Below the pieces are notes generated by a model. It searched no databases, was not told the DNA's origin, and saw only the letters and a program-made list of their open reading frames with translations. Both the position numbers and the translations under genes were made by a program. 49,247 nt of DNA from Candidatus Asbonarchaeum danakilense (GTDB taxonomy: Archaea > Nanohalarchaeota > Nanosalinia > Nanosalinales > Nanoanaerosalinaceae): positions 1 through 49,247 of the forward strand of contig JAXINV010000018.1 in the NCBI GenBank assembly GCA_034190465.1. Reading direction: 5' to 3'. Within the stretch, counting starts at the first letter, position 1; each line of letters starts with the position of its first letter. Of this stretch, positions 12 to 49,127 are shown in pieces.

Positions 12-245
12 CGGGTGGCGAGAAGATCTCTGATCTTCGATCCGCTCGGACCCATTCTGTAAAGCGGACCCTTCCTTTAGCAATCACAGCACCGTTCGGT
101 GCTGTTCGAACCTGCTTCCTCGTGAAGCAGGTGAGGTCCATCAGGTTCCACTCTCGCTATCGCTCGAGTCCGGTTCGGTTCTTCTTTGCCTGCATGAACG
201 TTCCTGCTGGAACTGTCGCCTGCTTCCTGGCAACCGGTGGCGAAA
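12..245 (+). repeat. Hairpin-rich tRNA-3'-end repeat/anti-repeat region (parent tRNA probably just left of window)
   Basis: 36-54 TTCGATCCGCTCGGACCCA looks like a tRNA T-loop, T-stem and acceptor 3' strand. It is preceded by an anti-copy (12-21) and hairpin GAAGATC-TCT-GATCTTC (22-38). Further hairpins at 86-105 and 110-132. Shares motifs with the Leu and Pro arrays. Confidence 0.6.
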
Positions 246-525: not shown

Positions 526-1150
526 CCGCCTGCAGCAGGGTACAGACCGTTTCCTCCGCCATCCTGAGTTCATCGTCCCCGCCGTTCTTGGCTCATTCTT
601 CAGCGGTCTGATCGGGTTCACCATCGAGCAGAGGGCAGCCCAGCTGTCCCTGGCGGGTCTGGCTGACATCGTCTTCCTTGGGACGATGGATACGATGCTG
701 TCAGTGTTCTTCACAGGGCTCCTCATCGCGTTGATCCTTGCCAGTCAGGAAGAGGGTGAACGGGGGCCGTGGACCGTGGCGTTTATCCGGTACCCTGCCC
801 TCGTCTTCGCATCAGTCCTCTACGCGGTCGCTGTCGGAATCGGTCTGCTCGCATTCATCGTGCCCGGCATCTACATCGGTGTCAGACTCGCGTTCTTCCC
901 GTTCCGCGTCGTTGCCGGTGAGTCCTCGTTCACCGCTCTCGGCCAGAGCTGGGACAGGGCGTCCGGTCACGTCCTGCAGACGGGTGTCGTCCTGTTCATC
1001 CTCTCTGGAATCGGGGCCGCGTCGTTCCTGTTCCTTGATCTGTTCCCTGAAGGCCTTGTCGAAGTGCTCGATATGGTTTACGTCTCGCTGTACCTGCCGT
1101 GGAGTACCTGTGTCCTCTACGCTGTGTACCGTGACATCTTCAACCGCTGA
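512..1150 (+). CDS. multi-pass membrane protein (PGIYIGVRL-type family)
   Basis: about 5 hydrophobic segments and a 'LLAFIVPGIYIGVRLAF...ALGQSW' motif typical of an uncharacterised membrane family. Confidence 0.75.
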   Translation: MTAGDRLQQGTDRFLRHPEFIVPAVLGSFFSGLIGFTIEQRAAQLSLAGLADIVFLGTMDTMLSVFFTGLLIALILASQEEGERGPWTVAFIRYPALVFASVLYAVAVGIGLLAFIVPGIYIGVRLAFFPFRVVAGESSFTALGQSWDRASGHVLQTGVVLFILSGIGAASFLFLDLFPEGLVEVLDMVYVSLYLPWSTCVLYAVYRDIFNR

Positions 1151-2523
1151 GTTCTCGTTCCTTCCATCGTCCAGGAGCTTTCAGACAGAGTCGGTAGCCG
1201 ATCCAGCCCAGCATGAACGAGCCCAGGACCATGACCCCTGACGCCCAGAGCGGGACAAGGCTGTAGACAAGCGACCAGATGAACAACGGGACGAACGCGA
1301 CACCCATCACCAGCGTGTAGGCGAGGAAGTACGTCCCGTTCAATAGCAGTCGATTCGGCTCCAGGCCGGTCAGGTAGGCGGTGGTGCCGAGCAGATACAG
1401 CATCAGCGGCAGCAGCACGACAGCACCGGTGACTCCTCCCTGGAAACCGTACATGTAGCCGATGAGCAACAGGTACAGGCCGATTATCGGTGTCGCGAGG
1501 AGGAAGTACGTGACGTACTTCGCATAGAACACGTTCTCGAATCCGACAGGGAACTTGAGGTAGTTGTCACCCTTGTCGAACCGGTTGATCCAGTTGTACA
1601 CCGACACCGATGCGATAGACAGGATCAGGGCGAACGAGAGTGCAGGTGCCGCCATGAAGCCCTGTGCGAAGAAGATCTGTTCCGCGAGGAAGACGAAGAC
1701 GGCCAGGATGACGCCGACGGAGAACACTAGCTTCAGCAGCCCGCCGCTGCTCCGCCGGATGTCCAGCAGGAACTTGGTGACCAGTCCTGTGTCATCGATC
1801 CGTTCCAGTCGTCGATGCAGGCCGCTGAACACCGCCCGGTACGTCCGCCGCATGTGCCGGAACCGTGGCTTGAACAGCATCAGCCCGACCATGATCATCA
1901 CCAGCGTCGGGGTGAAACCGAAGAACAGGTTGCTGAGGAACGGCTCATGGTAGAAACTGAGCGGGGTGAACGCTAGGATTCCGGACCGGAAGTACCAGAG
2001 CAGCAGACCCAACCCCGTCAGACCGGCAAGGAGGAACAGCTTACCGCGGTTGTACAGGCTGGCGAGCATGAAGCTAGCCCCGACACCGACAAGGAACATG
2101 CCGGAGACCGTGAACCACAGCAGTGCAAGATCGATACCAACCGAACCGCTGCTGTACACGGTAACAGGGACGATGCCGGCGATCAACGGGATGAGGAACA
2201 GGAAGGAGTAGTACAGCAGATCCTTCGCCAGGAACGTCGCCACCAGCCGGAACCGTGAGACCGGCAGCGTCCGCGAGGAGAAGATGAGCAGGTTGGACTC
2301 TCCGAGCAGGTTCTTGATTGCGTCCCGGCTGACGAAGCCGATTGCGCCGACGTTGAGTCCGAGGAAGAACGTCATGTAGTGGAGGCCGATCCTGACCTCG
2401 GCCAGCGCAAACCCTGAGGCGACAAGCGCCCAGTAGCCGGGGATGGAGAGCAACAGGATGATGAGCGGGAACAGCAGGAAGTTCCGTTTCCCGAAGAGCA
2501 GCGTGTGCATCCGCCACTCTTCC

Positions 2524-14897: not shown

Positions 14898-14993
14898 ACG
14901 GTACCGATGGACAAGGTTCTGACAGGGCAGGCTTAAAAATATCGCGCCGGGGCTGGTGAAAGCATAAAAAGCATCCAGACGGTTTATACATGT

Positions 14994-17507
14994 ATGCTCG
15001 GGGGTTGTCACGCAAAACGTCTCGTTCTTGCAGTGCTGGTGGCCGCCTGTGCCAGCACCGGCTTGGCAGGCGCGACGATCAGTCCCGATGTCGTCAACGA
15101 CAATCCACCGGTGACGCTCGAGTTCTCGATCACGAACGATGGCGGCCAGACGAACGAGGTAACGATCAAATCTCCGCTGACGAACGGTGGCTCGGAGGCG
15201 TTCTACATCTTGTCCGAAAACGAGGTGGACGCGCCCCAGGGATGGAACATCACGCTGCTCAACCGGGATGGTGACGGCACAAACGATGCGGTCCGGCTGA
15301 CGGATAACACGCTCTCGGGTGGTGGTTCCCTCTCCGTGAACATCACGTACAGCGGTGCCGGGCCGCAGGGGCAGTCGTTCGGCGTCAATCTGAGCAACGG
15401 TGAGAGCTACTCGGGGACGATCTTCGTCGACGGCACCGCGCCACAGGTCTCGTCGAAGGAGCCGACACGCGTCAACCTGACGGATGACCGACCGAGCATC
15501 GAGGCGTCGTTCAGCGACGGCCAGGGCATCGGTGTCGATACGGCGGAGCTCCGTCTCTTCCTCGACGGAACCGACATTACGGATAATTCATCGTTTTCGA
15601 CGACCAGCGCCAGCTACGATCCTACCGACGACCTCGCCGAGGGCCGGCACAACGTCTCGCTCTACCTGGTCGACAGGTTCGGCCACGACCGGTGGGTGAA
15701 CTGGACGTTCTCCCTTGCCGTGGCCCCGCTCCTCCGCAACCCGCGGCCGACAGGCGTCATCACTGAGCAACGGCCGACGTTCGAGGCAACCTACCTGGAT
15801 CCGTCGGCACTTGCGACTGACAGTTCTTCGGATACTCACTACTGGTTCCACGGAACGCGTTATGATGGAGGGGACGAGACGTTCTCCACAGAGAAAATCA
15901 ACGACACCGCATGGTATGTCAGACTTGATACCCCGGTCGAACTGTCTGATGGTTTCCACTGGATAAACCTCACGGCGCAGGACAGCAACGGGAACACGGC
16001 TACGCTGGACTGGAACGTGACGGTGGACACGACACCGCCGGTGTTCGATTCGATCTCCGTCTCCGACGGCGACACCTACACCGGCGATATGCCGATTTTC
16101 GTCACGGCGAGCGATGCGACGACGAGCGTCACGCGTGTCACGATGGAGATAGCCGATGAGGAGGACGAGGTCTCGGAGGAGATACAGGACGAGTTCCGCG
16201 GCCACATCGACACGACCGAGGTCGGCGACGGCACCCACACGCTGGAGGTGACGGCGTACGACGCGGCGGGCAACACACGGACCCGCAGGTTCGAGGTCAC
16301 GGTCGACAACAAGGAGCCACGGATTACGTACACCGACCTGTTCCCTGATCCGACCAACGTCCCGCCCCGACTCCAGGTGACGGCACGTGACGATGCGACA
16401 CAGGTGCTGGCGGCTGAGTACTACATTGGCGACGATCCCGGCACCGGCCAGGCCAACCCGCTGACCGTGACGAAACGGAACGAGCTGGAGACGACGTTCG
16501 AGGAGACGATCGATGTCAACGACCTGGAGAACGGCAATTATACACTGCACGTCAGGGTCAAGGACGGCGTTCAGCACTGGTCGGAGACACGGGAGATAAG
16601 CTTCGCGCTTGACAGGTCGTTGAAGGCAGCCATCGCGTTCGCCTCCGTCCCGGCCATCAGGAGCACTCAGGGCATCAGCACCACGACCCGGATCGATATA
16701 AAAAACACCGGGAAGGTTCCGGGCAAGGTCAACCTTTCTGTGGACGCCCCGTTCCCCGCCCAGGTGGTGAAGAACAACCGGCTGCTGCAGGCCGGTGCGA
16801 CCCGTGCCTTCTACGTGAACGTCTCTGTGCCAGAGAACACCTCGATCGGGAACTATACGGTCGATCTCGTCGCCTCGACGTCCTCAACGCTCGCCAATAC
16901 TTCGACAACCCTTGTGGTCGAGGCAGACGAGGAGACGCGGGCGGCGATCAATGGAACGTTCAGCGACCTGGAACAGCGTATCGAGAGACTTCAGGAGCGG
17001 AAGAACAACTGGAAGAAGCAGCTCAGCGATCACGTCATCCAGAACATCACGGAGCGGATAGCCGATCTGAACAGCACGTTGCAGCAGGCGCAGGATTCGA
17101 TGGAGGTCGGTAACTACCGGTATGCGAGGTCCGTAGCCGACGATCTGGCGGCGAACGTTGAGGAGGCCAGAGGAGACCTGGATACACAGATCCGGCAGTT
17201 CAAGCAGGCACGGAACAGGCGGAATATCATCATTGTCGCCATCGCCCTCATCATCACGACCGCTGCCGTGCTCTGGCACCGGTACACGCCGCCCGAGGAG
17301 GGCTTCCGCGGTGAGGCGGAACGGTTCATCCATAGGCCCGGTGGCAAGCACCCGCTCCAGGTCAGGGGCGAAGAAGTCCTTGAACGGCTCCGCGAGCGGC
17401 TGGAACACCGGAAGGAACAGGCCGCCCGTCTGATGCGCGACTACCGCTCAGACAGAGGGGACGAGGAAGAGCCCGAGGGCTGGGGCGGCTACAGTCCAGA
17501 GGCCTAG
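14994..17507 (+). CDS. large surface protein: signal peptide, Ig-like (Big) repeats, coiled coil, C-terminal TM anchor
   Basis: Repeated 'VDTTPP/VDGTAP/VDNKEP' and 'DGTHTLEVTAYDAAGN' Ig-like motifs, many N-x-S/T sequons, TM IIIVAIALIITTAAVLW. Confidence 0.85.
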   Translation: MLGGCHAKRLVLAVLVAACASTGLAGATISPDVVNDNPPVTLEFSITNDGGQTNEVTIKSPLTNGGSEAFYILSENEVDAPQGWNITLLNRDGDGTNDAVRLTDNTLSGGGSLSVNITYSGAGPQGQSFGVNLSNGESYSGTIFVDGTAPQVSSKEPTRVNLTDDRPSIEASFSDGQGIGVDTAELRLFLDGTDITDNSSFSTTSASYDPTDDLAEGRHNVSLYLVDRFGHDRWVNWTFSLAVAPLLRNPRPTGVITEQRPTFEATYLDPSALATDSSSDTHYWFHGTRYDGGDETFSTEKINDTAWYVRLDTPVELSDGFHWINLTAQDSNGNTATLDWNVTVDTTPPVFDSISVSDGDTYTGDMPIFVTASDATTSVTRVTMEIADEEDEVSEEIQDEFRGHIDTTEVGDGTHTLEVTAYDAAGNTRTRRFEVTVDNKEPRITYTDLFPDPTNVPPRLQVTARDDATQVLAAEYYIGDDPGTGQANPLTVTKRNELETTFEETIDVNDLENGNYTLHVRVKDGVQHWSETREISFALDRSLKAAIAFASVPAIRSTQGISTTTRIDIKNTGKVPGKVNLSVDAPFPAQVVKNNRLLQAGATRAFYVNVSVPENTSIGNYTVDLVASTSSTLANTSTTLVVEADEETRAAINGTFSDLEQRIERLQERKNNWKKQLSDHVIQNITERIADLNSTLQQAQDSMEVGNYRYARSVADDLAANVEEARGDLDTQIRQFKQARNRRNIIIVAIALIITTAAVLWHRYTPPEEGFRGEAERFIHRPGGKHPLQVRGEEVLERLRERLEHRKEQAARLMRDYRSDRGDEEEPEGWGGYSPEA

Positions 17508-24775: not shown

Positions 24776-25723
24776 TCATTCGACGACTTCGACCTCGTCG
24801 ATCTTGCCGTCGCTGTCCATGTCCCGGCCGCGGACGACCCGTGCCCAGGTATCCTCGTTCTCGTAGTCGTCGAGGATGTCGTCAGCGTGCTCTGTCAGGC
24901 CGAGGACTGCGGCGGTGGTTCCGGTGTTCCGGATGCCGGCGATGACGATGATGAAATGGTCCTGGTTCTTGGGATTGCGGGCCTTGGCGATGAGGCCGAT
25001 GCTGTCGTCGCTGTACTCTTCGCCGGTCTGGTCGGAGAGGAGTCGTCGGTACGGGAAGTTCTCCTGGTCGAACCGGACGGGCAGGTAGCTGTTGAACTCG
25101 GCGGTGATGGTGTTGGTGAGGGGTCCACCGACGAGGACGAGGTTGTCGTCGTAGGCGTCCTCGTTTTTGACCTCGGTGTCCAGCTCTGCGACCTCGCGTT
25201 CGATGCTGCCGTGCCTGCCGAGCAGGGCGCCGATGTCGACGGCGTAGTGCCCGTCACGTCCCCGGACCTGGTGCGGGCCGTGGGGATCGGGCGAGCCGAC
25301 GATGATACGGCAGTCGATGGTGCCGTTGCTGATGAAGGGGTGGAGGAAATCGCGAACGGGGCTGGATGTCCCGCTGATAGGCATGTCTGCTGGTTTTCCT
25401 TCGCCTGGAAGGTCGAGGGCGTACGCCTGCGCTGTCGGCTGATAGTATTTGGCGAGCGAGCCGCCACGTTCCTCCCGGGAGGCGACCTCGATGATGCCGC
25501 TGTCCCGCATCTCCCGGATGTGGTAGTAGACGTTCTGGTCGTTGATGTCGAGCTCGTCGGCGATGGCTGCGGGATAGGATGGTTTCTCGGCGATGTGCTG
25601 GAGGATCTTCCACCGGGTGTCGTTGAGGAGGCCGCGCAGCGCTTCCGGCTGTTCTTCGACCTGCGTCTCCTTGACGTATCTCGTCCCGTCGGTCTCCTGG
25701 ATGAGCTGCGCCACGCCGATCAC
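24776..25723 (-). CDS. ArsR-type HTH regulator with C-terminal alpha/beta domain (VGSPDPHG family)
   Basis: RWKILQHI...YPAAIADEL...VYYHIREM HTH, plus LVLVGGPLTN and IAGIRNTGT. Confidence 0.88.
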   Translation of the reverse strand: MIGVAQLIQETDGTRYVKETQVEEQPEALRGLLNDTRWKILQHIAEKPSYPAAIADELDINDQNVYYHIREMRDSGIIEVASREERGGSLAKYYQPTAQAYALDLPGEGKPADMPISGTSSPVRDFLHPFISNGTIDCRIIVGSPDPHGPHQVRGRDGHYAVDIGALLGRHGSIEREVAELDTEVKNEDAYDDNLVLVGGPLTNTITAEFNSYLPVRFDQENFPYRRLLSDQTGEEYSDDSIGLIAKARNPKNQDHFIIVIAGIRNTGTTAAVLGLTEHADDILDDYENEDTWARVVRGRDMDSDGKIDEVEVVE

Positions 25724-30043: not shown

Positions 30044-30808
30044 ATGTCGGATGACCGGCTGGGGGACATCGATCCAGGGATCAGGAACTGGGTAATCCGC
30101 AAGTACGAAGCAGGGATGAGCCGCGAGGAGATCAAGGGCAAGCTGAGCGAGGACATAGACGATCTGACGCTTGTGGATACGATCATCGACAGCGGTGAAG
30201 CCCGGCGACGTGGCGGAGCAAACGGTGCCCTGTTTGAGGATGATCTCGGGACGGTCTACCGCCGGTCTGTCCGGTCGGTGCTGGGCGTTGAGGAACGGTT
30301 CTTCCGCAACCTGTCGGAGCAGTCGGCGGTGCAGGCGACGGAGATCATGGTTGTGAACGTTGCGGTGCTGCTGGCGATTGGTGCACTGCTGCCTGCGTTG
30401 ATCGGCGCGGTGCTGCTGTCCGGCGGGCTGACACTGGGCGGGCTGGCGGTCGTCGGTGCGCTCGGTGCTGTGACGATGGTGTCGGTGGCGCTGTTCGCGG
30501 GCACGGCCCATGTGTTTGTGTTCCTGCTGGGAGGCCGCGGGCTGCGGACGACGTACAACCTGTGCGCGAACATGTCGGCGCTGTTCCTGCTGTCATGGAT
30601 CCCGTTCCTGAACCTTTTCGTCTGGCTGTACGGGCTGATGGTGCTGGTCCGGGGCCTGGAGGAGGCGCACGATCTGTCGTTCTTCCGGTCGCTGGCTGTT
30701 GCGTTCCTGGCGGTAATTGCCTGGCTGATAGTGATTGCGGTGCTGTGGCTGACGGTGGAGCCGTCCACGGCGGTCCAGACGGGCGGCGAGTTCCTGATGC
30801 CAGTGTAG
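30044..30808 (+). CDS. Yip1-family membrane protein
   Basis: AHVFVFLLGG, LLSWIPF and GLEEAHDLS motifs, about 5 TM helices. Start at the ATG at 30044. Confidence 0.82.
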   Translation: MSDDRLGDIDPGIRNWVIRKYEAGMSREEIKGKLSEDIDDLTLVDTIIDSGEARRRGGANGALFEDDLGTVYRRSVRSVLGVEERFFRNLSEQSAVQATEIMVVNVAVLLAIGALLPALIGAVLLSGGLTLGGLAVVGALGAVTMVSVALFAGTAHVFVFLLGGRGLRTTYNLCANMSALFLLSWIPFLNLFVWLYGLMVLVRGLEEAHDLSFFRSLAVAFLAVIAWLIVIAVLWLTVEPSTAVQTGGEFLMPV

Positions 30809-30898
30809 GTGAATGGTTTAAAAATCTCCCTGTCCAGCGAATACTACGCGGTCACGGGACCGACAGTCGCTCCTGACCTGTACGTTTATCCTACGCAT

Positions 30899-30981
<83 letters not shown>

Positions 30982-31200
30982 CTTTGCAGTGCTTTCGCGA
31001 GTGATTCGAACCTGATCACCGCCAGGTGAGATGTTCGAATCCTCGCCCTCGCATTTTCCTCCGGAAAATGCTCGGAACCGCCATCTGCCTGCGGCAGGAA
31101 GGCGGTGTCTCGCACTTTGGAACGGTCTTGTTTCCAGGAGGGTAATGAACGGCTTTCGCTCACGCTGTTCGATCAACCGATGTCTCGCGCTTTTTCGAGA
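30982..31200 (+). repeat. tRNA-Leu 3'-end repeat/anti-repeat hairpin array
   Basis: Exact 21-nt copy GTTCGAATCCTCGCCCTCGCA at 31033-31053, anti-copy at 30997-31012, decayed copies CTCGCACTTTG (31109-31119) and TCTCGCGCTTT (31183-31193). Confidence 0.85.
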
Positions 31201-31217
31201 AGAGTAGATAGACATTC

Positions 31218-31994
31218 TCAGTCCTGAAGCTTGTCGCTGATGTAGTCGTCCAGCGTCCGCTCTGTGTCGTACTGCTGCCAGTCGCCTGACAGGGTGACGT
31301 CCTCAGTCGGCTGGTCCCGGTCGTACTGCCGGCCGATGTCCGCCGCTGCTTCGAAGCTGTCGGCGACCTGGTTCAGGCTGTACGTGCCTTCCGCGACCTC
31401 GAGGTCGCCGTACGACGGCGCGTCCGTGATGGCGTCGACTGCGTCGTCCAGGTGGACGAACGAGCGCAGCTGTTCGCCGTCGCCGTAGATGTTCAGGTCG
31501 TCGCCGCTCTCGGCGCAGCTGAAGAAGTAGCTGATAGTGCCTTTGCCGTCGCCGTAGACCGTTCCCAGCCGGACGATGGAGGCATCCTCGTACCGGTCGG
31601 CCAGTTGTTCGCCGGCGGCCTTCGCCTCGGCGTAGTCGATCGCACCGTCGAATCCTGGCTCTGACTCGACCGCCGCTGCCGACGAGACGTAGACGAGGCC
31701 CGGCCGTTCGTCCGGCTCGACGTCCTGCAGATCCTCGACGAGCTGTCGCGTGCCTTCGACGTCGGGCGAGTCCACGGCGTCGGCCGGGTGGCCGTACGAG
31801 TTCAGGGTCGCGGCGTGGTAGACGGTGTCGAACGCTGACAGGTCCACGGGCAGCTGTTCCGTCGCGTCGGCCCGCAGCATCGCCGCCTCCTCCGTATCCG
31901 GCTGTGACCGGCCGATCCCGAGAGGATCGTCCAGCCGGTCCAGCAGTTCCTGCCCGATGTCGCCTGTGGCGCCGAGCACGAGGTCCCGCGTCAT
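31218..31994 (-). CDS. NAD-dependent epimerase/dehydratase (extended SDR)
   Basis: GATGDIG, YVSSAA, YAEAK and GDGEQLRSFVHLDD motifs. Confidence 0.9.
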   Translation of the reverse strand: MTRDLVLGATGDIGQELLDRLDDPLGIGRSQPDTEEAAMLRADATEQLPVDLSAFDTVYHAATLNSYGHPADAVDSPDVEGTRQLVEDLQDVEPDERPGLVYVSSAAAVESEPGFDGAIDYAEAKAAGEQLADRYEDASIVRLGTVYGDGKGTISYFFSCAESGDDLNIYGDGEQLRSFVHLDDAVDAITDAPSYGDLEVAEGTYSLNQVADSFEAAADIGRQYDRDQPTEDVTLSGDWQQYDTERTLDDYISDKLQD

Positions 31995-32078
31995 GCCGGT
32001 GTGTCGTCACGGGAACGTTATAAATCATCTGGTGCCGGTGGAGATAAAAGACGCGGCACCCTATGTGGCTCTGCGACG

Positions 32079-32861
32079 ATGGTACACGACGCGGCGATCA
32101 TCGACATGGACGGCACCCTGTACCGGGAGGGCACGGCCATCGACGGCGCGGCAGCTGCCGTCTCATGGCTCCGGGAGCAGGGTATCACACCGCTCTTCCT
32201 GACGAACAATGCCAGCCGGCACCGGCAGACCTACGTCGACCGGCTTGCTGACTGCGGCATCGACGCGGAGCGTGACGAGATCATCACGTCCGGCTACCTC
32301 ACCGCCCGCCATCTCGCGGACACGGTGCCGGGCAGCACGGTCTACGTTGTCGGTGAGGACGGGCTCAGGGACGAGATTCGGGAGCAGGATCTCTCACTCA
32401 CCGCTGTCCCTGACGAGGCAGACGTCTTCGTCTTGTCCTACACCCGTGAGGTGGACTACGAACTGCTCACCGAGATGCTCCGCGGGTTCGACGACGATAC
32501 GTTGATCGCCACCAACCCGGACCAGACCCTGCCGGGGGAGGACGGCCCGCTTCCTGGCACAGGAACCATCGTCGCTGCATGTGAGGCGATGTTGGGGGAG
32601 GAAGCGGAGGTCATCGGCAAGCCGTCGCTGACAGCCGCTGAGACCGCGACGTCTCTCGTTGACGCGGAGCCCGAGGGCTGCCTGATGATCGGGGACCGGT
32701 GCAACACGGACATCGTGATGGGTAAGAACGCAGGCATGACGACCGTCCTGGTGCTGACCGGTGTCACGGACCGGCAGGAAGCAACTGCGACCGCGGTGGA
32801 ACCCGACTTCGTGCTTGACTCGATAGCCGATCTGCGGGATGCGCTCGATCAGAACTCGTAG
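32079..32861 (+). CDS. HAD-IIA family hydrolase (NagD-like)
   Basis: DMDGT, LTNNA, TNPD, IGKPS, IGDRCNTDI and VLTGV motifs. Confidence 0.94.
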   Translation: MVHDAAIIDMDGTLYREGTAIDGAAAAVSWLREQGITPLFLTNNASRHRQTYVDRLADCGIDAERDEIITSGYLTARHLADTVPGSTVYVVGEDGLRDEIREQDLSLTAVPDEADVFVLSYTREVDYELLTEMLRGFDDDTLIATNPDQTLPGEDGPLPGTGTIVAACEAMLGEEAEVIGKPSLTAAETATSLVDAEPEGCLMIGDRCNTDIVMGKNAGMTTVLVLTGVTDRQEATATAVEPDFVLDSIADLRDALDQNS

Positions 32862-33613
32862 CTCCGCATCTCGTCGTTGCCTTCGTAGACGTCGACCGTG
32901 ACTGTCTCGCCGAGGTCGATGGTGGCGTTGGTGCCGGTGACGGGCTTGGAGGGGAGTTCCCTGCTGAAGGCGTTGAACGTGACGTGCTGGATGTCGGCGT
33001 ACAGGGTCCTGTCGGGCTCGTGCAGGTGGCCGTTGAAGACGGCCCTGACGTTCTCGTGTCGGCTGATGACGCGGTTGATCTCTTTCTTGTTGCCGCAGAA
33101 CGCGCGTTCAGGGTAGTTGGTCCACCAGTAGTTGCCCTGGACGTCGTGGTAGTGGATCGGGTGGTGGATGAAGATAGTCGCCTCCTTGACGTCGTCAAGT
33201 GTCTCGTCGAGGAATTCGAGCTGTTCGTCGGTGATCTCGCCCCGGGAGCCGGACAGCCACGGGGATGAGGAGTCGAGGAAGATCAGCTGTTCGCTGTTGA
33301 CGGTCTCCCTGCCCCAGAGCTCGTTGCCGAACAGGTCGGGGAGCGTGTCCCGGTCGATGTGCATCACGTCGTGGTTCCCGGCGAGGAACTGGACCGGGCA
33401 GTCGAGCTCGTCGAGGATGGCGCGGACGTCCTCCAGGTTGGAGCGGTCTTCGTGTTCGTTGTCGCCGTGCTGGATGATGTCGCCGGGCGCGACCACGATG
33501 TCGGGGTCGTCTTGGTCGAGGCGTTCGACTGCCGTGCGGAGTGCGTCGGCAATCTGGTCGTGGTGGCTGGTCCGCATGTGGATGTCGGGGAGGACGCCGA
33601 TCCGTGCTGCCAT
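32849..33613 (-). CDS. calcineurin-like metallophosphoesterase
   Basis: DIH, GD, GNHD, HHP and GHLH motifs. Confidence 0.93.
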   Translation of the reverse strand: MAARIGVLPDIHMRTSHHDQIADALRTAVERLDQDDPDIVVAPGDIIQHGDNEHEDRSNLEDVRAILDELDCPVQFLAGNHDVMHIDRDTLPDLFGNELWGRETVNSEQLIFLDSSSPWLSGSRGEITDEQLEFLDETLDDVKEATIFIHHPIHYHDVQGNYWWTNYPERAFCGNKKEINRVISRHENVRAVFNGHLHEPDRTLYADIQHVTFNAFSRELPSKPVTGTNATIDLGETVTVDVYEGNDEMRSYEF

Positions 33614-45448: not shown

Positions 45449-46963
45449 ATGCTGCCGGGATTCTTGAACATGAACATCGTCGCGATTCTGCTGCTTGTGG
45501 CGGGTGTCGCGGCCCTGCTGTGGCGCGACAGGGAGAAGATCGAGCGGCATTCGATCCTGATCGTGCGCAGGACGGAGCACGGCATCGAGTTCCTGGACCG
45601 CGTGGCCAAACGCGCGCCACGGCTGTGGAAGGTCTGGTCGACGCTCGGTGTGATCGGTTCGTTCGTCGTGATGGGCTTCATCGTCTACTTCCTGTTCAAG
45701 AACGGTCTCAAGGTCCTGATGAGCGCCCAGGCGGTCCCTGCGGTCGGGCTGCTGCTGCCGACGGTCGGCGGCCAGGCGTCGATGGGTCCTGGCTACTTCC
45801 TGGTGCCGTTCTGGTACTGGATCGTCGGGATTTCGACGGTGGCGATCTTCCACGAGATGATGCACGGTGTGATCGCCCGGAACGAGGGCTTCCCGATCAA
45901 GTCTGTCGGCTGGTTTGTGCTGGGTATCCTTCCCGGGGCGTTCGTGGAGCCGGAGGGCGAGGAGATGCTGCCCGATGCCTCGGACGATGACGAGGAGGAA
46001 GCTGACGATGATAAAGATGAGGACGCTGATGATGACGAGGACGATGACGGCCCGCTCCGCGTTGAGGGGCCGTGGGGCGACGGTGACTGGAAGTCGAAGC
46101 TGCGCGTGCTGGCTGCCGGCAGCGCGGCCAACCTGACGATCGCTCTGCTGATCTTCGGCGTGATGCTGGGTATGACGACGACGGCGCACGGCCAGCGCGA
46201 GATCAAGGGTTTGTACGAGTACAACGGCGCTGAGATCGTCTCGATTTACAATAACACTGCTGCGGATCGGGCGGGACTGAAGCCGGGGATGGTGGTGGCC
46301 TCAATGGACGGCCACACGGTCACGGATGTGCGCGACTTCCTCCGGATCGGTTCGAACTTCTCGGTGAATGAGACGGTGTGGATGGCCGGGACGTACAACG
46401 GCTCGCGGTTCAATATCTCGGCGGAGATCGAGACGCGGCAGGTCCGGAACTTCACGTACCGTCCTGCCCCGATCGACCCGCTGCTTGTGGCGCTGGAGCG
46501 GCGTGTGCCGGGCACGATCGAGAACTATGCGGCGTACAATGACTGGGTCGTCGGCGAGGATATACGGACGGAGCTGGAGCGCTGGCGGTGGATCCGGCGG
46601 AACTATGAGGGCATGGATCAGCGCGCATCGGAGCGGATCGATGCGCTGGAGGCGAAGCTGGAGGATGGTCCTGAGCCGTTCCTCGGTGTGGGTATCGTGT
46701 CGGCGACGTCGGTCAAGGCCGGCATGGCGCCGCTGGTGCCGATCGCGGAGGTGCTGCTGAAGCTGTTCTTCTTCATGGTGATGATCCATGCGGGCATCGG
46801 TGCGGCGAATATGATGCCGATCAAGCCGCTGGACGGTGGCTGGATGCTGTCGACGGTGATGGAGCGGATCAGACCGGCGTGGCAGCGCCCTGTGGTTCGG
46901 TTCGCGACGCTGGGGACGCTCTTCCTGTTTGCGGTGAACATCGCGGTGCCGTTGCTGTTCTGA
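45449..46963 (+). CDS. site-2 protease (M50) with PDZ-like domain
   Basis: HEMMH, GAFVEP, AAGSAAN and NMMPIKPLDGG motifs. AADRAGLKPG PDZ-like segment. Start at 45449 or 45470. Confidence 0.93.
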   Translation: MLPGFLNMNIVAILLLVAGVAALLWRDREKIERHSILIVRRTEHGIEFLDRVAKRAPRLWKVWSTLGVIGSFVVMGFIVYFLFKNGLKVLMSAQAVPAVGLLLPTVGGQASMGPGYFLVPFWYWIVGISTVAIFHEMMHGVIARNEGFPIKSVGWFVLGILPGAFVEPEGEEMLPDASDDDEEEADDDKDEDADDDEDDDGPLRVEGPWGDGDWKSKLRVLAAGSAANLTIALLIFGVMLGMTTTAHGQREIKGLYEYNGAEIVSIYNNTAADRAGLKPGMVVASMDGHTVTDVRDFLRIGSNFSVNETVWMAGTYNGSRFNISAEIETRQVRNFTYRPAPIDPLLVALERRVPGTIENYAAYNDWVVGEDIRTELERWRWIRRNYEGMDQRASERIDALEAKLEDGPEPFLGVGIVSATSVKAGMAPLVPIAEVLLKLFFFMVMIHAGIGAANMMPIKPLDGGWMLSTVMERIRPAWQRPVVRFATLGTLFLFAVNIAVPLLF

Positions 46964-47153
46964 CGATGAGCGCTTCGTGGGAGAGGGTGCCCTCGTGTGA
47001 CGCCGTTATGTCTTATCGAGGGATAGGGCCGTAACTTATAAGCCTGGACGTTGCAGGTACCGGTGCGTAACGTGGTGGTGTGCCTGGTTCCTCGTTTGAG
47101 GTGACGGGAACGGAAGGTCCTCGAATCTTCCAACCACCGGAATGTCAGTAAAT

Positions 47154-47202
47154 GGCGGGGTGGTGGACTGGTCGAACCGCTGTGTTCGGCCATCATCACC
47201 GC
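47154..47202 (+). repeat. upstream copy and anti-copy of the tRNA-Pro 5' end
   Basis: GGCGGGGTGGTG at 47154-47165 equals the first 12 nt of the tRNA. CATCATCACCGC (47191-47202) is its G:U-tolerant complement, enclosing hairpin GGTCGAAC/GTTCGGCC. Confidence 0.7.
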
Positions 47203-47218
47203 GTGTTGAGTGTCATGT

Positions 47219-47291
47219 GGCGGGGTGGTGTAGTGGACTATCATCGCAGCCTCGGGCGCTGTGGACCCCGGTTCAAATCCGGGCCCTGCCA
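47219..47291 (+). tRNA. tRNA-Pro(CGG)
   Basis: GGCGGGG/CCCTGCC-A acceptor, GCAGC-CTCGGGC-GCTGT anticodon arm, CCCGG-TTCAAAT-CCGGG T-arm. Confidence 0.94.
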
Positions 47292-47293
47292 TC

Positions 47294-47604
47294 TCACGTT
47301 CGTTCGCTGACAAGCCCGTGTTTTGAACCTTGAGCATGGTCTGTGATCTGCGACCGGTTCAAATCCGGGCCCTGCCATCCGACTGGTTACGCTCGGTCGA
47401 CACGCAAGAGCGGGTTCGCAAGCGAACCCACTGAAAGGCTTGTGGATTTGAACCCCAAGAAAATCTTTGATTTTCGAGTTCAAATCCGGGCCCTGCCATC
47501 GCTTCGCTCGGCAGCTGGCGGATTTTCACACTCCGGTTCTCAGTCGAGAACCTCCGAGGTACAAATCCGGGCCCCGAGAACTGCCGCCTGCTTCGTTTGG
47601 CAGG
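47294..47604 (+). repeat. tRNA-Pro 3'-end repeat/anti-repeat hairpin array
   Basis: Copies of the tRNA 3' end at 47354-47379 (26 nt exact), 47478-47500 (23 nt exact) and 47558-47575 (degenerate). Anti-copies at 47314-47329, 47444-47454 and 47510-47525. Confidence 0.9.
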
Positions 47605-47705
47605 TGTTCGGATCTGGAGGAGGTGCTGACTACGCCGGGTTCTGCCGCCGCCGGGCCGATGTTACGCGTATATTTATTAACCTGCGCGGGGAAGTGTTAC
47701 CCTGT

Positions 47706-49127
47706 ATGGACGACTGGCGACGTGGTTCCGGGTTGATCGTTCTGGCGGTGCTTCTGTTCGCTGCTCCTGCGGCGGCACAGAGCGGGTTCGATGTCACTGT
47801 CAGCAGCGAGGATACGACGGTCCGCCCGGCGCAGGGTGAGACAGCCAAGTTCCACATCACGGTCACGAACACCGCGGAACAGCAGCAGCGGTTCCGTGTG
47901 TCCTATATAACCGGGACAGCGACCGATCCGGCATGGTACTACTTGGAGAACCCGTTCATCACGCTGGAGCCGAACGAGACCGAGATGACCACCCTGTATG
48001 CTACGCCAGACATGACAGCGCAGGCAGGGACGATGGGGCCCCGTATCATCGTGTTCCCGCTGGATGACCCTGACAACCGGTTCAACAAGCTTGTGAGTTT
48101 CTCCGTCATCCGTGACACGAACCTGGAGATCATCTCGTTCGAAGGCCCGCAGGCCATGTACAAGCCTGGCGAGACAGTCAACGTCTCGATGACGGTCAAG
48201 AACGTGATCCAGCGAGACATCGCGGCTAACCGGTATCAGGTCGTGATGACGGTCAACGGCGACCAGACGACACGCCCTGTCCCGTCCATCGAGGCAGGTG
48301 AGACAGAGCGTATCACCGCAGCCCTGGAGCTGGAGAGCTACCGCGCAGGTATCTACGACCTCACGGTCGAGATCCGCGAGATCGGGGGTGAGGTCCACAG
48401 CACACAGCAGGCGAAGATCGAGGTAACGAAGGAGCGGAGGCTTGGCTACGATCATACTTCTTCCAAGTCGTTCCTGAGTTCGTCGAAGACTGTGAGGGTC
48501 ACGAACACAGGCAACGTCGTCGTGGAGGACCTGAACGTCTCGAAGTCGGCCGCATGGTACATTGATCCTTTTGTGTCGTTCCCCCAGGAGCCGGACCAGA
48601 TCGTGAACGTGGACGGTGAGCGGAAGTACGTCTGGACAGTGGAACGCCTTGAACCAGGCGAGTCCGTCTCGTTCTCCTACACGGTCAGCTACTGGTCGCT
48701 GGTGCTGGTGCTGTTGATCCTGGTCGCGGCGGGTGCGGTGCTCGTCCGCAGGTTCCGCTCGGTGACGCTCGTGAAGTCGGGCCGGCGCTCCGGTGACCGC
48801 CTGTCGATCCATCTCCGTGTGAAGAACAACACGGGCTCCAGGATCGAGGACGTGGAGGTCGAGGACTTCGTGCCCGGCATCGCCTCGCTGATCGAAAAGT
48901 TCGACTCCCGCAGCCCGGAGAAGATCCAGAGCACGGACGACGGCACGAAGATGGTCTGGAAGCTGGGCATGATGGAGCCGGGCGAGGAACGCATCATCAC
49001 GTATAAGGTCAAACCCCGTGTCCAGGTCGAGGGCTACATCTCACTGCCGGAGGCGGAGGTCACGTACGAGAAGAAGGGCCAGGAAAAGGCGCGCGAGTCC
49101 CACCCGATCTCCGCTGACTTCAGCTGA
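47706..49127 (+). CDS. membrane-anchored surface protein with CARDB/NPCBM-like Ig domains and a cytoplasm-side Ig-like domain
   Basis: Signal peptide ...FAAPAAAQ, repeated 'ITVTNT..LEPNET / YKPGETVNV / LEPGES', TM LVLVLLILVAAGAVLV. Start at the ATG at 47706. Confidence 0.85.
   Translation: MDDWRRGSGLIVLAVLLFAAPAAAQSGFDVTVSSEDTTVRPAQGETAKFHITVTNTAEQQQRFRVSYITGTATDPAWYYLENPFITLEPNETEMTTLYATPDMTAQAGTMGPRIIVFPLDDPDNRFNKLVSFSVIRDTNLEIISFEGPQAMYKPGETVNVSMTVKNVIQRDIAANRYQVVMTVNGDQTTRPVPSIEAGETERITAALELESYRAGIYDLTVEIREIGGEVHSTQQAKIEVTKERRLGYDHTSSKSFLSSSKTVRVTNTGNVVVEDLNVSKSAAWYIDPFVSFPQEPDQIVNVDGERKYVWTVERLEPGESVSFSYTVSYWSLVLVLLILVAAGAVLVRRFRSVTLVKSGRRSGDRLSIHLRVKNNTGSRIEDVEVEDFVPGIASLIEKFDSRSPEKIQSTDDGTKMVWKLGMMEPGEERIITYKVKPRVQVEGYISLPEAEVTYEKKGQEKARESHPISADFS

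Follow-up and report, generated by a model that had tools for sequence, protein, structure and literature searches.

How does a tRNA gene come to be followed by an antisense copy, and then by a sense copy, of its own 3' end? The question is raised by tRNA-Leu(GAG) of Candidatus Asbonarchaeum danakilense (Nanohalarchaeota), located in a stretch of 49,247 nucleotides (nt), positions 1 to 49,247 of contig JAXINV010000018.1 of assembly GCA_034190465.1, referred to below as the window. The window is contig C5 of a fragmented metagenome-assembled genome (MAG; 1.2 Mb in 81 contigs, 92% complete), here called G000. Behind the tRNA gene lies a unit for which we propose the name palindromic tRNA-end module, in which the tRNA end (X) is followed by a short hairpin (L1), an antisense copy (X'), a small inner hairpin (L2) and a sense copy (X). 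The module class is widespread, being present at about a third of the tRNA genes of G000 and at many in its relatives and in haloarchaea. As a tentative explanation, the one that fits the data best, we propose that the units may arise at the DNA level, as inverted-plus-direct re-duplications of the tRNA end, and that a portable core may be exchanged between loci through the T-loop sequence that tRNAs share.

Anatomy of the tRNA-Leu(GAG) array

The array comprises the following features:

30899-30981/2, plus strand: tRNA-Leu(GAG), predicted by ARAGORN and Rfam (RF00005, 50.1 bits), without an encoded CCA
30961-30981, plus strand: source segment X, tRNA positions 53-73 (T-loop, 3' strand of the T-stem, 3' strand of the acceptor stem, discriminator)
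30979-30992, plus strand: hairpin L1, a GCAC/GTGC stem around TTTGCA that includes the last tRNA bases
30989-31012, plus strand: X', the antisense copy of positions 73 to 53
31013-31032, plus strand: inner hairpin L2, with stem TCACC (31016-31020)/GGTGA (31025-31029), loop GCCA and GA on both flanks
31033-31053, plus strand: exact sense copy of X
31051-31071, plus strand: hairpin GCATTTTCC/GGAAAATGC, which includes the last bases of the copy
31078-31119, plus strand: short distal unit, in which a 28-nt hairpin precedes a copy of the last tRNA bases and trailer, CTCGCACTTTG (31109-31119)
31178-31195, plus strand: second, decayed tail TCTCGCGCTTT, running into the T5 tract (31191-31195) that ends the intergenic region

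The window contains just two exact occurrences of the 21-nt sequence GTTCGAATCCTCGCCCTCGCA, one at 30961-30981 and one at 31033-31053, an offset of 72 nt that leaves 51 nt between the copies. Allowing up to three mismatches, there were still two matches, compared with none in 100 shuffles, which confirms the exact copy that a preliminary description had reported from the letters alone. The antisense copy with one inserted T, claimed in the same description, is equally real: GCGAGTGATTCGAACC, at 30997-31012, is the perfect complement of positions 53-66 plus a single extra T at 31002. Along the whole of X', TGC pairs with positions 71-73, TTTC remains unpaired opposite 67-70, GCGAG pairs with 62-66, and the extra T is followed by GATTCGAAC, which pairs with 53-61. 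X' starts in the GTGC strand of L1, and the Leu unit is larger than first described. Either the genuine end of the tRNA or the copy downstream can serve as pairing partner of X'. The segment 30983-31062 folds as a rod (-34.1 kcal/mol, z -6.28), and none of 200 shuffles folded as well.

Further downstream, the preliminary description had seen two decayed tails separated by hairpins. The first is solid, 31109-31119 being an 11-nt exact copy of 30975-30985 (tRNA end and trailer), and the hairpins of the unit fold well. The second, at 31183-31193, is weak: the 16-nt family to which it belongs (31103-31118 and 31178-31193) is 88% alike, and the region 31119-31200 folds no better than shuffles (z +0.77). 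Both tails follow a shortened module plan, a hairpin and then the last 7-11 tRNA bases.

The array is not a simple tandem repeat, in agreement with the preliminary description. Tandem Repeats Finder (minimum score 30) returned no rows, and hence no head-to-tail array, either here or at tRNA-Pro(CGG), and the spacers of successive units are unrelated to one another. A known RNA family was also rejected, since Rfam 15 (E ≤1; 30700-31400 and 46900-47750) matched nothing besides tRNA and a chance mascRNA hit inside the tRNA. A 109-residue minus-strand open reading frame (ORF) across the array has no Pfam match. On one side the array is flanked by an ORF without a Pfam match and on the other by a convergent epimerase gene, with genes for a HAD hydrolase and an MBL-fold protein nearby.

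A second array in the window

The other array noted at the outset follows tRNA-Pro(CGG):

47150-47204, plus strand: mirror-image unit in the leader, with a 5'-end copy (47153-47171), a hairpin and an antisense segment (fold z -2.99)
47219-47291, plus strand: tRNA-Pro(CGG), predicted by ARAGORN and Rfam
47314-47379, plus strand: unit 1, with an antisense copy carrying an extra T (47314-47329), an inner hairpin and a 26-nt exact copy (47354-47379)
47441-47500, plus strand: unit 2, with a bulge-free antisense copy, a GAAAATC/GATTTTC inner hairpin and a copy at 47475-47500
47556-47581, plus strand: unit 3, a decayed copy with 73% identity to the reference

These units fold at z -2.3 to -4.1. Each of the two arrays is built from the sequence of its own tRNA, as originally proposed, and the antisense copy of Pro unit 1, GCCCGTGTTTTGAACC (47314-47329), does carry its extra T at the place equivalent to that in Leu, together with one mismatch.

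Several side observations concern this part of the genome. TATA-like boxes (TTTAAA or TTATAA) are situated upstream of the mature 5' ends of the tRNAs, at distances of about 75 and about 170 nt (window 30820-30898 and 47040-47218), which implies long, structured tRNA leaders. The tRNA-Pro(CGG) locus at 47150-47500 recurs on contig C11 (36650-37000), identical from about -65 to about +210, a stretch that covers the leader unit, the tRNA and units 1-2, and with flanks that differ. Either a segment with tRNA-derived repeats at its borders has been duplicated, or the MAG contains redundant strains; contig C53 likewise duplicates the second tRNA-Phe unit of C29. Just past the window (C5, about 49190-49347), a run of Ns stands directly upstream of tRNA-Tyr, after a 55-nt copy of the 5' part of the tRNA, and looks like a scaffolding gap at a repeat.

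Occurrence across tRNA genes and taxa

The tRNA census of G000 comprised 35 predictions with a recognisable T-loop; 16 intron-mode ARAGORN calls without a T-loop, many of them spurious-looking, were excluded. At least one copy of the gene's own 3' end (up to five mismatches in 21 bases, within 700 nt downstream) was present at 13 of the 35 loci, among them Ser(TGA), which spans a gap of Ns, and the first copy usually began 50-65 nt past the tRNA. Copies of the 5' end were found upstream of Pro(CGG), Pro(GGG), Cys, Val(TAC), Leu(CAA) and Tyr.

The same anatomy is present in relatives. A covariance model built from 25 units (R1; E ≤0.001, with rough E-values) matched half of the phylum's 70 genomes (35). 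Individual genomes gave 0-20 matches and G000 gave 20, some matches being a single unit read on both strands or redundant contigs. Leaving out G000, which belongs to family f1, matches were obtained in 4 of 9 genomes of f1, 7 of 8 of f4 and 23 of 50 of f3. Six single-contig genomes, 95-99% complete, had no match; the single-contig genome G026 had six. Copy numbers this uneven are typical of a repeat that spreads and not of a function belonging to the core. A stricter sequence pattern, ATTYGAAC-N12-40-GTTCRAAT, matched 7 of the 70 genomes, and the reversed pattern, used as a control, none.

A pattern scan of one genome per species (185,579 species) yielded at least 119 stretches. Among the 80 loci listed, 41 carry titles of halophilic archaea (Haloferax, Halobacterium, Haloarcula, Natrinema, Halosimplex and Halobellus, plus one Nanohaloarchaeota record) and 42 have a predicted tRNA within 250 nt. 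The loci inspected among them show the same architecture with longer L1 and L2, and four complete haloarchaeal genomes contain 1-8 strict-pattern units each. A few cases are bacterial (Micavibrio, Oligoflexia, Nanosyncoccus), and two bacterial hits, at contig ends, look like assembly palindromes. Genes for tRNA-Ser(TGA) give rise to false positives of the pattern.

We found no description of such units in the open full-text literature, a search with subscription journals and supplements outside its range. Nor are they described in the pertinent passages of 10.1101/2025.02.15.638363, PMC9897764, PMC3119063, PMC5861418, PMC7237163 and PMC11790251.

Other recurrent structures were seen beside the units. 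In haloarchaea (loci L042-L160), the L1 and L2 hairpins often have GAGCGAAGCGAG at their apex, and a number of L2 families (ACGnnAGAC...GTCTnGCnATCGG is one) reappear in different genera and behind different tRNAs. In G000, the trailers of tRNA-Val(GAC) and tRNA-Val(TAC) contain a conserved structured element (C9, about 25305-25375; C23, about 14960-15020) that begins GTTCGAACCTGCTTCG and continues CGAAGCAGGTGAG; it also lies inside a predicted tRNA-Arg(TCT) intron of the same-genus genome G001 (L031).

An extra nucleotide opposite positions 61/62

The preliminary description had suggested that the bulge common to the Leu and first Pro antisense copies reflects a common generating mechanism or a selected structure, and that its position should be compared across arrays. 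Antisense copies were locally aligned to the complement of tRNA positions 53-66. In this phylum, 23 of 39 units span at least 63..55, and ten of these have an extra nucleotide opposite 62/61 (T in eight, A in one, C in one). The remainder have single insertions elsewhere (five, spread over four junctions), a perfect copy (four) or mismatches or deletions only (four). The bulge recurs far beyond Leu and Pro. It is rare in other taxa, mostly Halobacteria, where 43 of 57 units span at least 63..55: four have the extra nucleotide opposite 62/61, one has a single insertion elsewhere, 17 are perfect and 21 have mismatches or deletions only. An insertion at 61/62 is, then, strongly favoured in this phylum and is neither universal nor a general property of the phenomenon.

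The ten bulged units have at least six types of L2. Some are homologous, for example unit 1 of Pro and Phe, the Gly(TCC) units of G023 and G025, and the Leu(GAG) units of G000 and G019, so the count overstates their independence. Position 61/62 is the border between the T-loop sequence common to nearly all tRNAs and tRNA-specific sequence. Given this coincidence, the bulge may mark the edge of a portable core and not be a selected bulge.

Turnover and a shared core

Units differ between close relatives. G001 lacks exactly the 72-nt Leu unit and keeps the hairpin and the distal short unit, the ortholog of GCATTTTCC/GGAAAATGC directly following the tRNA. In eight relatives, the tRNA-Leu(GAG) locus has hairpin units in four and no full unit in the other four, of which G001 and G015 retain the short distal unit alone. 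G004 has no counterpart of the proximal Phe unit of G000, and at the orthologous Gly(CCC) locus G000 and G001 have the distal unit in common with unrelated proximal spacers. As a side observation, the tRNA-Leu genes of G011, G026, G020 and G031 are split by introns after position 37/38, and their halves match the query 70-90 nt apart.

The inner part of a unit can be nearly the same behind different tRNAs. In G001, the units behind tRNA-Thr, tRNA-Lys and tRNA-Gly share 50/51, 49/52 and 48/52 bases of the core, as against 11-16 of 25 bases in the left flanks and 7-9 of 12 in the right. In two of the three, the bases adjoining the core are complementary to the local tRNA. Homology also links Pro unit 1 with Phe unit 1 in G000. 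The duplication can also extend into the trailer, by 18 nt in Leu(CAA) of G000 and by more than 40 nt in Halobellus, which indicates a copy of DNA and not of mature tRNA. A retro-copied tRNA fragment was likewise rejected, as the copies lack CCA and can include trailer, and no reverse transcriptase (RVT_1, PF00078) was found in five unit-bearing genomes. These five genomes also gave no match to Cas1 (PF01867) or to the Y1 transposase (Y1_Tnp, PF01797), other transposase families being outside the search; at 69-93% completeness, absence of the three enzymes is not proven.

A tentative model for the origin of the modules

From these patterns we infer a copying mechanism along the following lines. 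Strand-switching (fold-back) copying, of the kind known from origin-dependent amplification with inverted repeats (ODIRA), or recombination at the end of the tRNA gene would make and spread the modules, with no dedicated enzyme encoded by an element. [quoted passage not shown] The core consists of the extra T, GATTYGAAC, L2 and GTTCRAATC; it could move between loci because it is flanked on both sides by the T-loop sequence of nearly all tRNAs, copying or conversion carrying it from one tRNA locus to the next while the local tRNA served as template for the outer parts. Such a process would explain arrays that use their own tRNA's sequence and yet carry an extra T where the universal part (53-61) meets the specific part (62 onward), and would account for the patchy copy number, the turnover between close relatives, the mirror form on the 5' side and the absence of linked enzymes in our searches. 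According to PMC11790251, ODIRA-type template switching produces triplicated segments whose junctions are inverted, and tRNA genes are places where replication forks stall. If transcribed as part of the trailer, a module would fold to a rod and might add hairpin structure ahead of the terminal T-tract; the antisense piece would be tolerated because the downstream copy masks it within the rod. The units are enriched in two unrelated groups of salt-in halophiles, which suggests that an agent is shared or that the cause is physical, such as hairpins that would be stable at high salt together with many genome copies.

Several observations weigh against this proposal. L2 has no evident source, as no L2-like repeat occurs upstream of position 53 in the tRNA; the hairpin downstream is repeated at some loci only, for example Leu(CAA) of G000 and in Halobellus. 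A plain two-switch (ODIRA) event could not make the first unit at a naive tRNA locus, and the model needs a pre-existing core. The Leu(GAG) design is common to G000 (f1) and to G019 and G025 (f4): TGC, four unpaired nucleotides, GCGAG, one extra nucleotide, GATTCGAAC and a GA-flanked CACC/GGTG hairpin. Its L2 shows a compensatory change, TCACC/GGTGA against GCACC/GGTGC in G025 and G019, and G033 (f3) shares TGCTTTCGCGAG; a design kept across families looks like selection or transfer between lineages. The distal hairpin is kept by two-sided changes (5 of 11 pairs, in only five sequences), and the distal short units keep the last tRNA bases, tracking their own tRNA. In a young-looking Halobellus unit with a long perfect direct repeat, the antisense copy is imperfect. 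The Leu indel between G000 and G001 could equally be a deletion between direct repeats, and we infer the switching event itself from its presumed products in the sequence. The missing origin of L2 and its conservation at Leu(GAG), which suggests constraint, are the reasons why we hold the DNA-level origin as a possibility only tentatively.

Alternative explanations

The conservation at Leu(GAG) is what would be expected if the units were a selected cis-acting RNA structure in a long pre-tRNA trailer (and leader) that folds into rods. Such a rod would act as a hairpin for termination or insulation, as a barrier to exonucleases or as a binding site for proteins (through a GA/GA kink-like motif, for example), or it would be a switch, the antisense segment pairing now with the real tRNA end, now with the decoy copy. 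We consider a selected RNA structure somewhat unlikely. It gains from the strong folds (z -6.28 at Leu, -2.3 to -4.1 at Pro), from the design kept across families with its compensatory change in L2, from the two-sided changes in the distal hairpin and the tails that match their own tRNA, and from GA on both flanks of the inner stem in 15 units (tRNA strand). The unit-bearing tRNAs of G000 also lack a strong T-tract of their own, the strongest closing the array, and the hairpin of antisense plus copy is stabler than that of tRNA end plus antisense in 18 of 21 units, a rough comparison in that the first includes L2. Yet the antisense stems of 35 units contain 389 Watson-Crick pairs against a single G.U, with four A.C and 12 transversion mismatches, so G.U is not enriched. 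The strand test is inconsistent: the minus strand has the better folding energy in 28 of 37 units of the phylum and the plus strand in 44 of 57 units elsewhere. Neither the G.U versus A.C asymmetry nor the plus/minus folding energy thus gives a consistent RNA-strand signal; pair counts and strand test provide no positive sign of RNA-level selection, though the units may still have an RNA role. Units are, moreover, absent from 35 of 70 genomes, complete ones included, and from about two thirds of the tRNAs of G000, they turn over fast between congeners, they match no Rfam family, and in Halobacteria the tRNA is followed by a T-tract even before the unit begins. The units might instead stem from site-specific recombination at the T-loop of the tRNA, as its footprints or as miniature cassettes: either remains of elements with a palindromic attP (X', loop, X) or tiny hairpins moved in trans by a structure-specific recombinase, their extra base resembling the extrahelical base of integron attC sites; this we judge unlikely. 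A direct repeat running from the T-arm to or past the tRNA end is a classical signature of integrases, as the relevant parts of PMC9897764 and PMC3119063 set out, and new units are proximal to the tRNA with decayed ones distal. Palindromic att sites do exist. The strict pattern matched 60 IMG/VR contigs, some through phage tRNA-Ser genes and most (L163-L220) through one family of bacterial contigs of 5-20 kb that end in a near-perfect antisense-loop-sense copy of the 3' half of tRNA-Met; in L195 this palindrome lies directly beside a PF00589 tyrosine integrase (604-1434, minus strand), on a contig that also has a holin gene. None of the 60 matches is of the halophile type, however, and the phage and plasmid collections searched contain nothing that matches the Leu trailer (30983-31125). 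The distance from tRNA to X' is only 15-70 nt, without cargo. PF00589 integrases occur in 43 of 70 genomes of the phylum, with no correlation between integrase and unit counts (rho -0.09, p 0.47) and with 13 of 35 unit-bearing genomes lacking a match. In none of four complete haloarchaeal genomes does a PF00589 gene lie within 10 kb of a unit, the nearest being about 16-540 kb from the unit examined. That the Leu duplicate might be the scar of an element still intact in relatives, a possibility raised at the outset, is not borne out: the tRNA-Leu(GAG) loci of eight relatives have no intact element within about 1.5 kb on each side, the range that was searched.

A bolder pair of ideas, which we regard as more doubtful still, would make the modules self-propagating, structure-specific hairpin cassettes that use the T-loop as a recombination site, or a halophile-specific RNA device for masking and unmasking tRNA ends. 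As a cassette, by analogy with integron attC and the folded attP of CTX phage, the folded rod with its extra-helical base would recombine with a double-stranded tRNA end, and the enzyme would act in trans, coming from a virus or a haloarchaeal host and being shared by Halobacteria and their nanohaloarchaeal symbionts. It is highly improbable that the array resembles the tRNA by chance, or that it comes from simple tandem slippage or faulty assembly. The MAG is fragmented into 81 contigs, contigs from public runs break at the tRNA T-arm, and the two contig-end bacterial hits resemble assembly palindromes; against this, shuffles gave no match, Tandem Repeats Finder gave none, and the same architecture stands in finished haloarchaeal chromosomes and in single-contig relatives such as G026. 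The array was confirmed in DNA contigs of four public runs, which offered no usable insertion polymorphism at it; a search of the public runs listed no RNA run that contains it. A Logan contig from a salt-lake metagenome run spans 30954-32953 with four differences, and is not independent support because that run may be the source sample.

Other candidates were examined as well. Bulge-helix-bulge, box C/D, H/ACA, t-element and minihelix structures were rejected because they did not fit in spacing or pairing when folds were inspected by eye, and a specifier-anticodon (T-box-like) reading, also judged by eye, was rejected because the L2 loops mismatch the codons. The idea that units shield against integrases, which predicts a negative link, failed (rho -0.09, p 0.47; Fisher odds ratio 1.13, p 1.0). 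A duplication at an integrase att site has the direct repeat in its favour, with a 51-nt gap and no cargo, integrase or intact element found. A CRISPR array or casposase duplication was set aside because the five genomes have no cas1 match and the spacers hold the antisense repeat copy and hairpins, not foreign DNA. For an element derived from IS200/IS605, the same genomes gave no match to PF01797, one of several transposase families.

Comparison with known systems

The tRNA duplications at attL and attR of integrated elements resemble the units in having a direct repeat from the T-arm to the gene end, a complete tRNA upstream and a fragment downstream. In the units, however, the gap is 15-70 nt and not kilobases, an antisense copy and two hairpins fill it, there is neither integrase nor cargo, units stack in arrays, and a mirror form exists on the 5' side. 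The tRNA-half palindromes at prophage ends in IMG/VR share the order of antisense copy, short loop and sense copy of the tRNA 3' part; unlike the units, they are bacterial, centred on the anticodon-stem side, and situated beside an integrase and a real prophage.

In CRISPR arrays, the newest unit lies by the leader and distal repeats are degenerate. The modules have a similar repeat-spacer look, with the newest unit next to the tRNA, degenerate distal repeats and repeats of 21-28 bp, but the five genomes have no Cas1 match and the spacers are self-complementary to the repeat. Like the units, integron attC sites form arrays of imperfect hairpins that have an extra-helical base and a central stretch left unpaired. 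The units differ in having a conserved AAC/GTT at the top of the stem and not at its base, in the lack of cassette genes, and in that no integron integrase was seen in what was a general PF00589 search.

[quoted passage not shown] As far as the sections of PMC3119063 on them go, haloarchaeal MITEs, PATEs and SMRs are, like the units, non-coding elements of 80-110 bp with palindromic or inverted repeats, strain-specific presence or absence and a mode of mobilisation that is unknown, while they are not tRNA-linked and have no locally templated target copies. ODIRA triplications, in the account given in part of PMC11790251, share the sense-antisense-sense order and hairpin-capable inverted repeats at both turn-rounds; the units are about 70-130 bp and not kilobases, include no origin and have an L2 that lacks an upstream source. 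Casposon integration at tRNA 3' ends, as outlined in part of PMC6614799, is a further system for comparison.

Implications

Mobile elements classically insert at the ends of tRNA genes, and partial copies of a tRNA are routinely taken for scars of prophages. The modules are an apparently undescribed product of such sites: short, palindromic and free of cargo, with no linked enzyme found. They recur at many tRNAs, stack, exchange cores and are common in two unrelated groups of salt-in halophiles. In annotation, fragments of this kind are not to be counted as att sites or pseudo-tRNAs. The presence of units in cultured species of Haloferax, Haloarcula and Halobacterium makes both a mutational and a functional reading directly testable. 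If mutational, the modules would represent a structure-driven rearrangement that is peculiar to the ends of tRNAs and that high intracellular salt and polyploidy may favour; if functional, they would reveal an unknown layer of tRNA transcript architecture.

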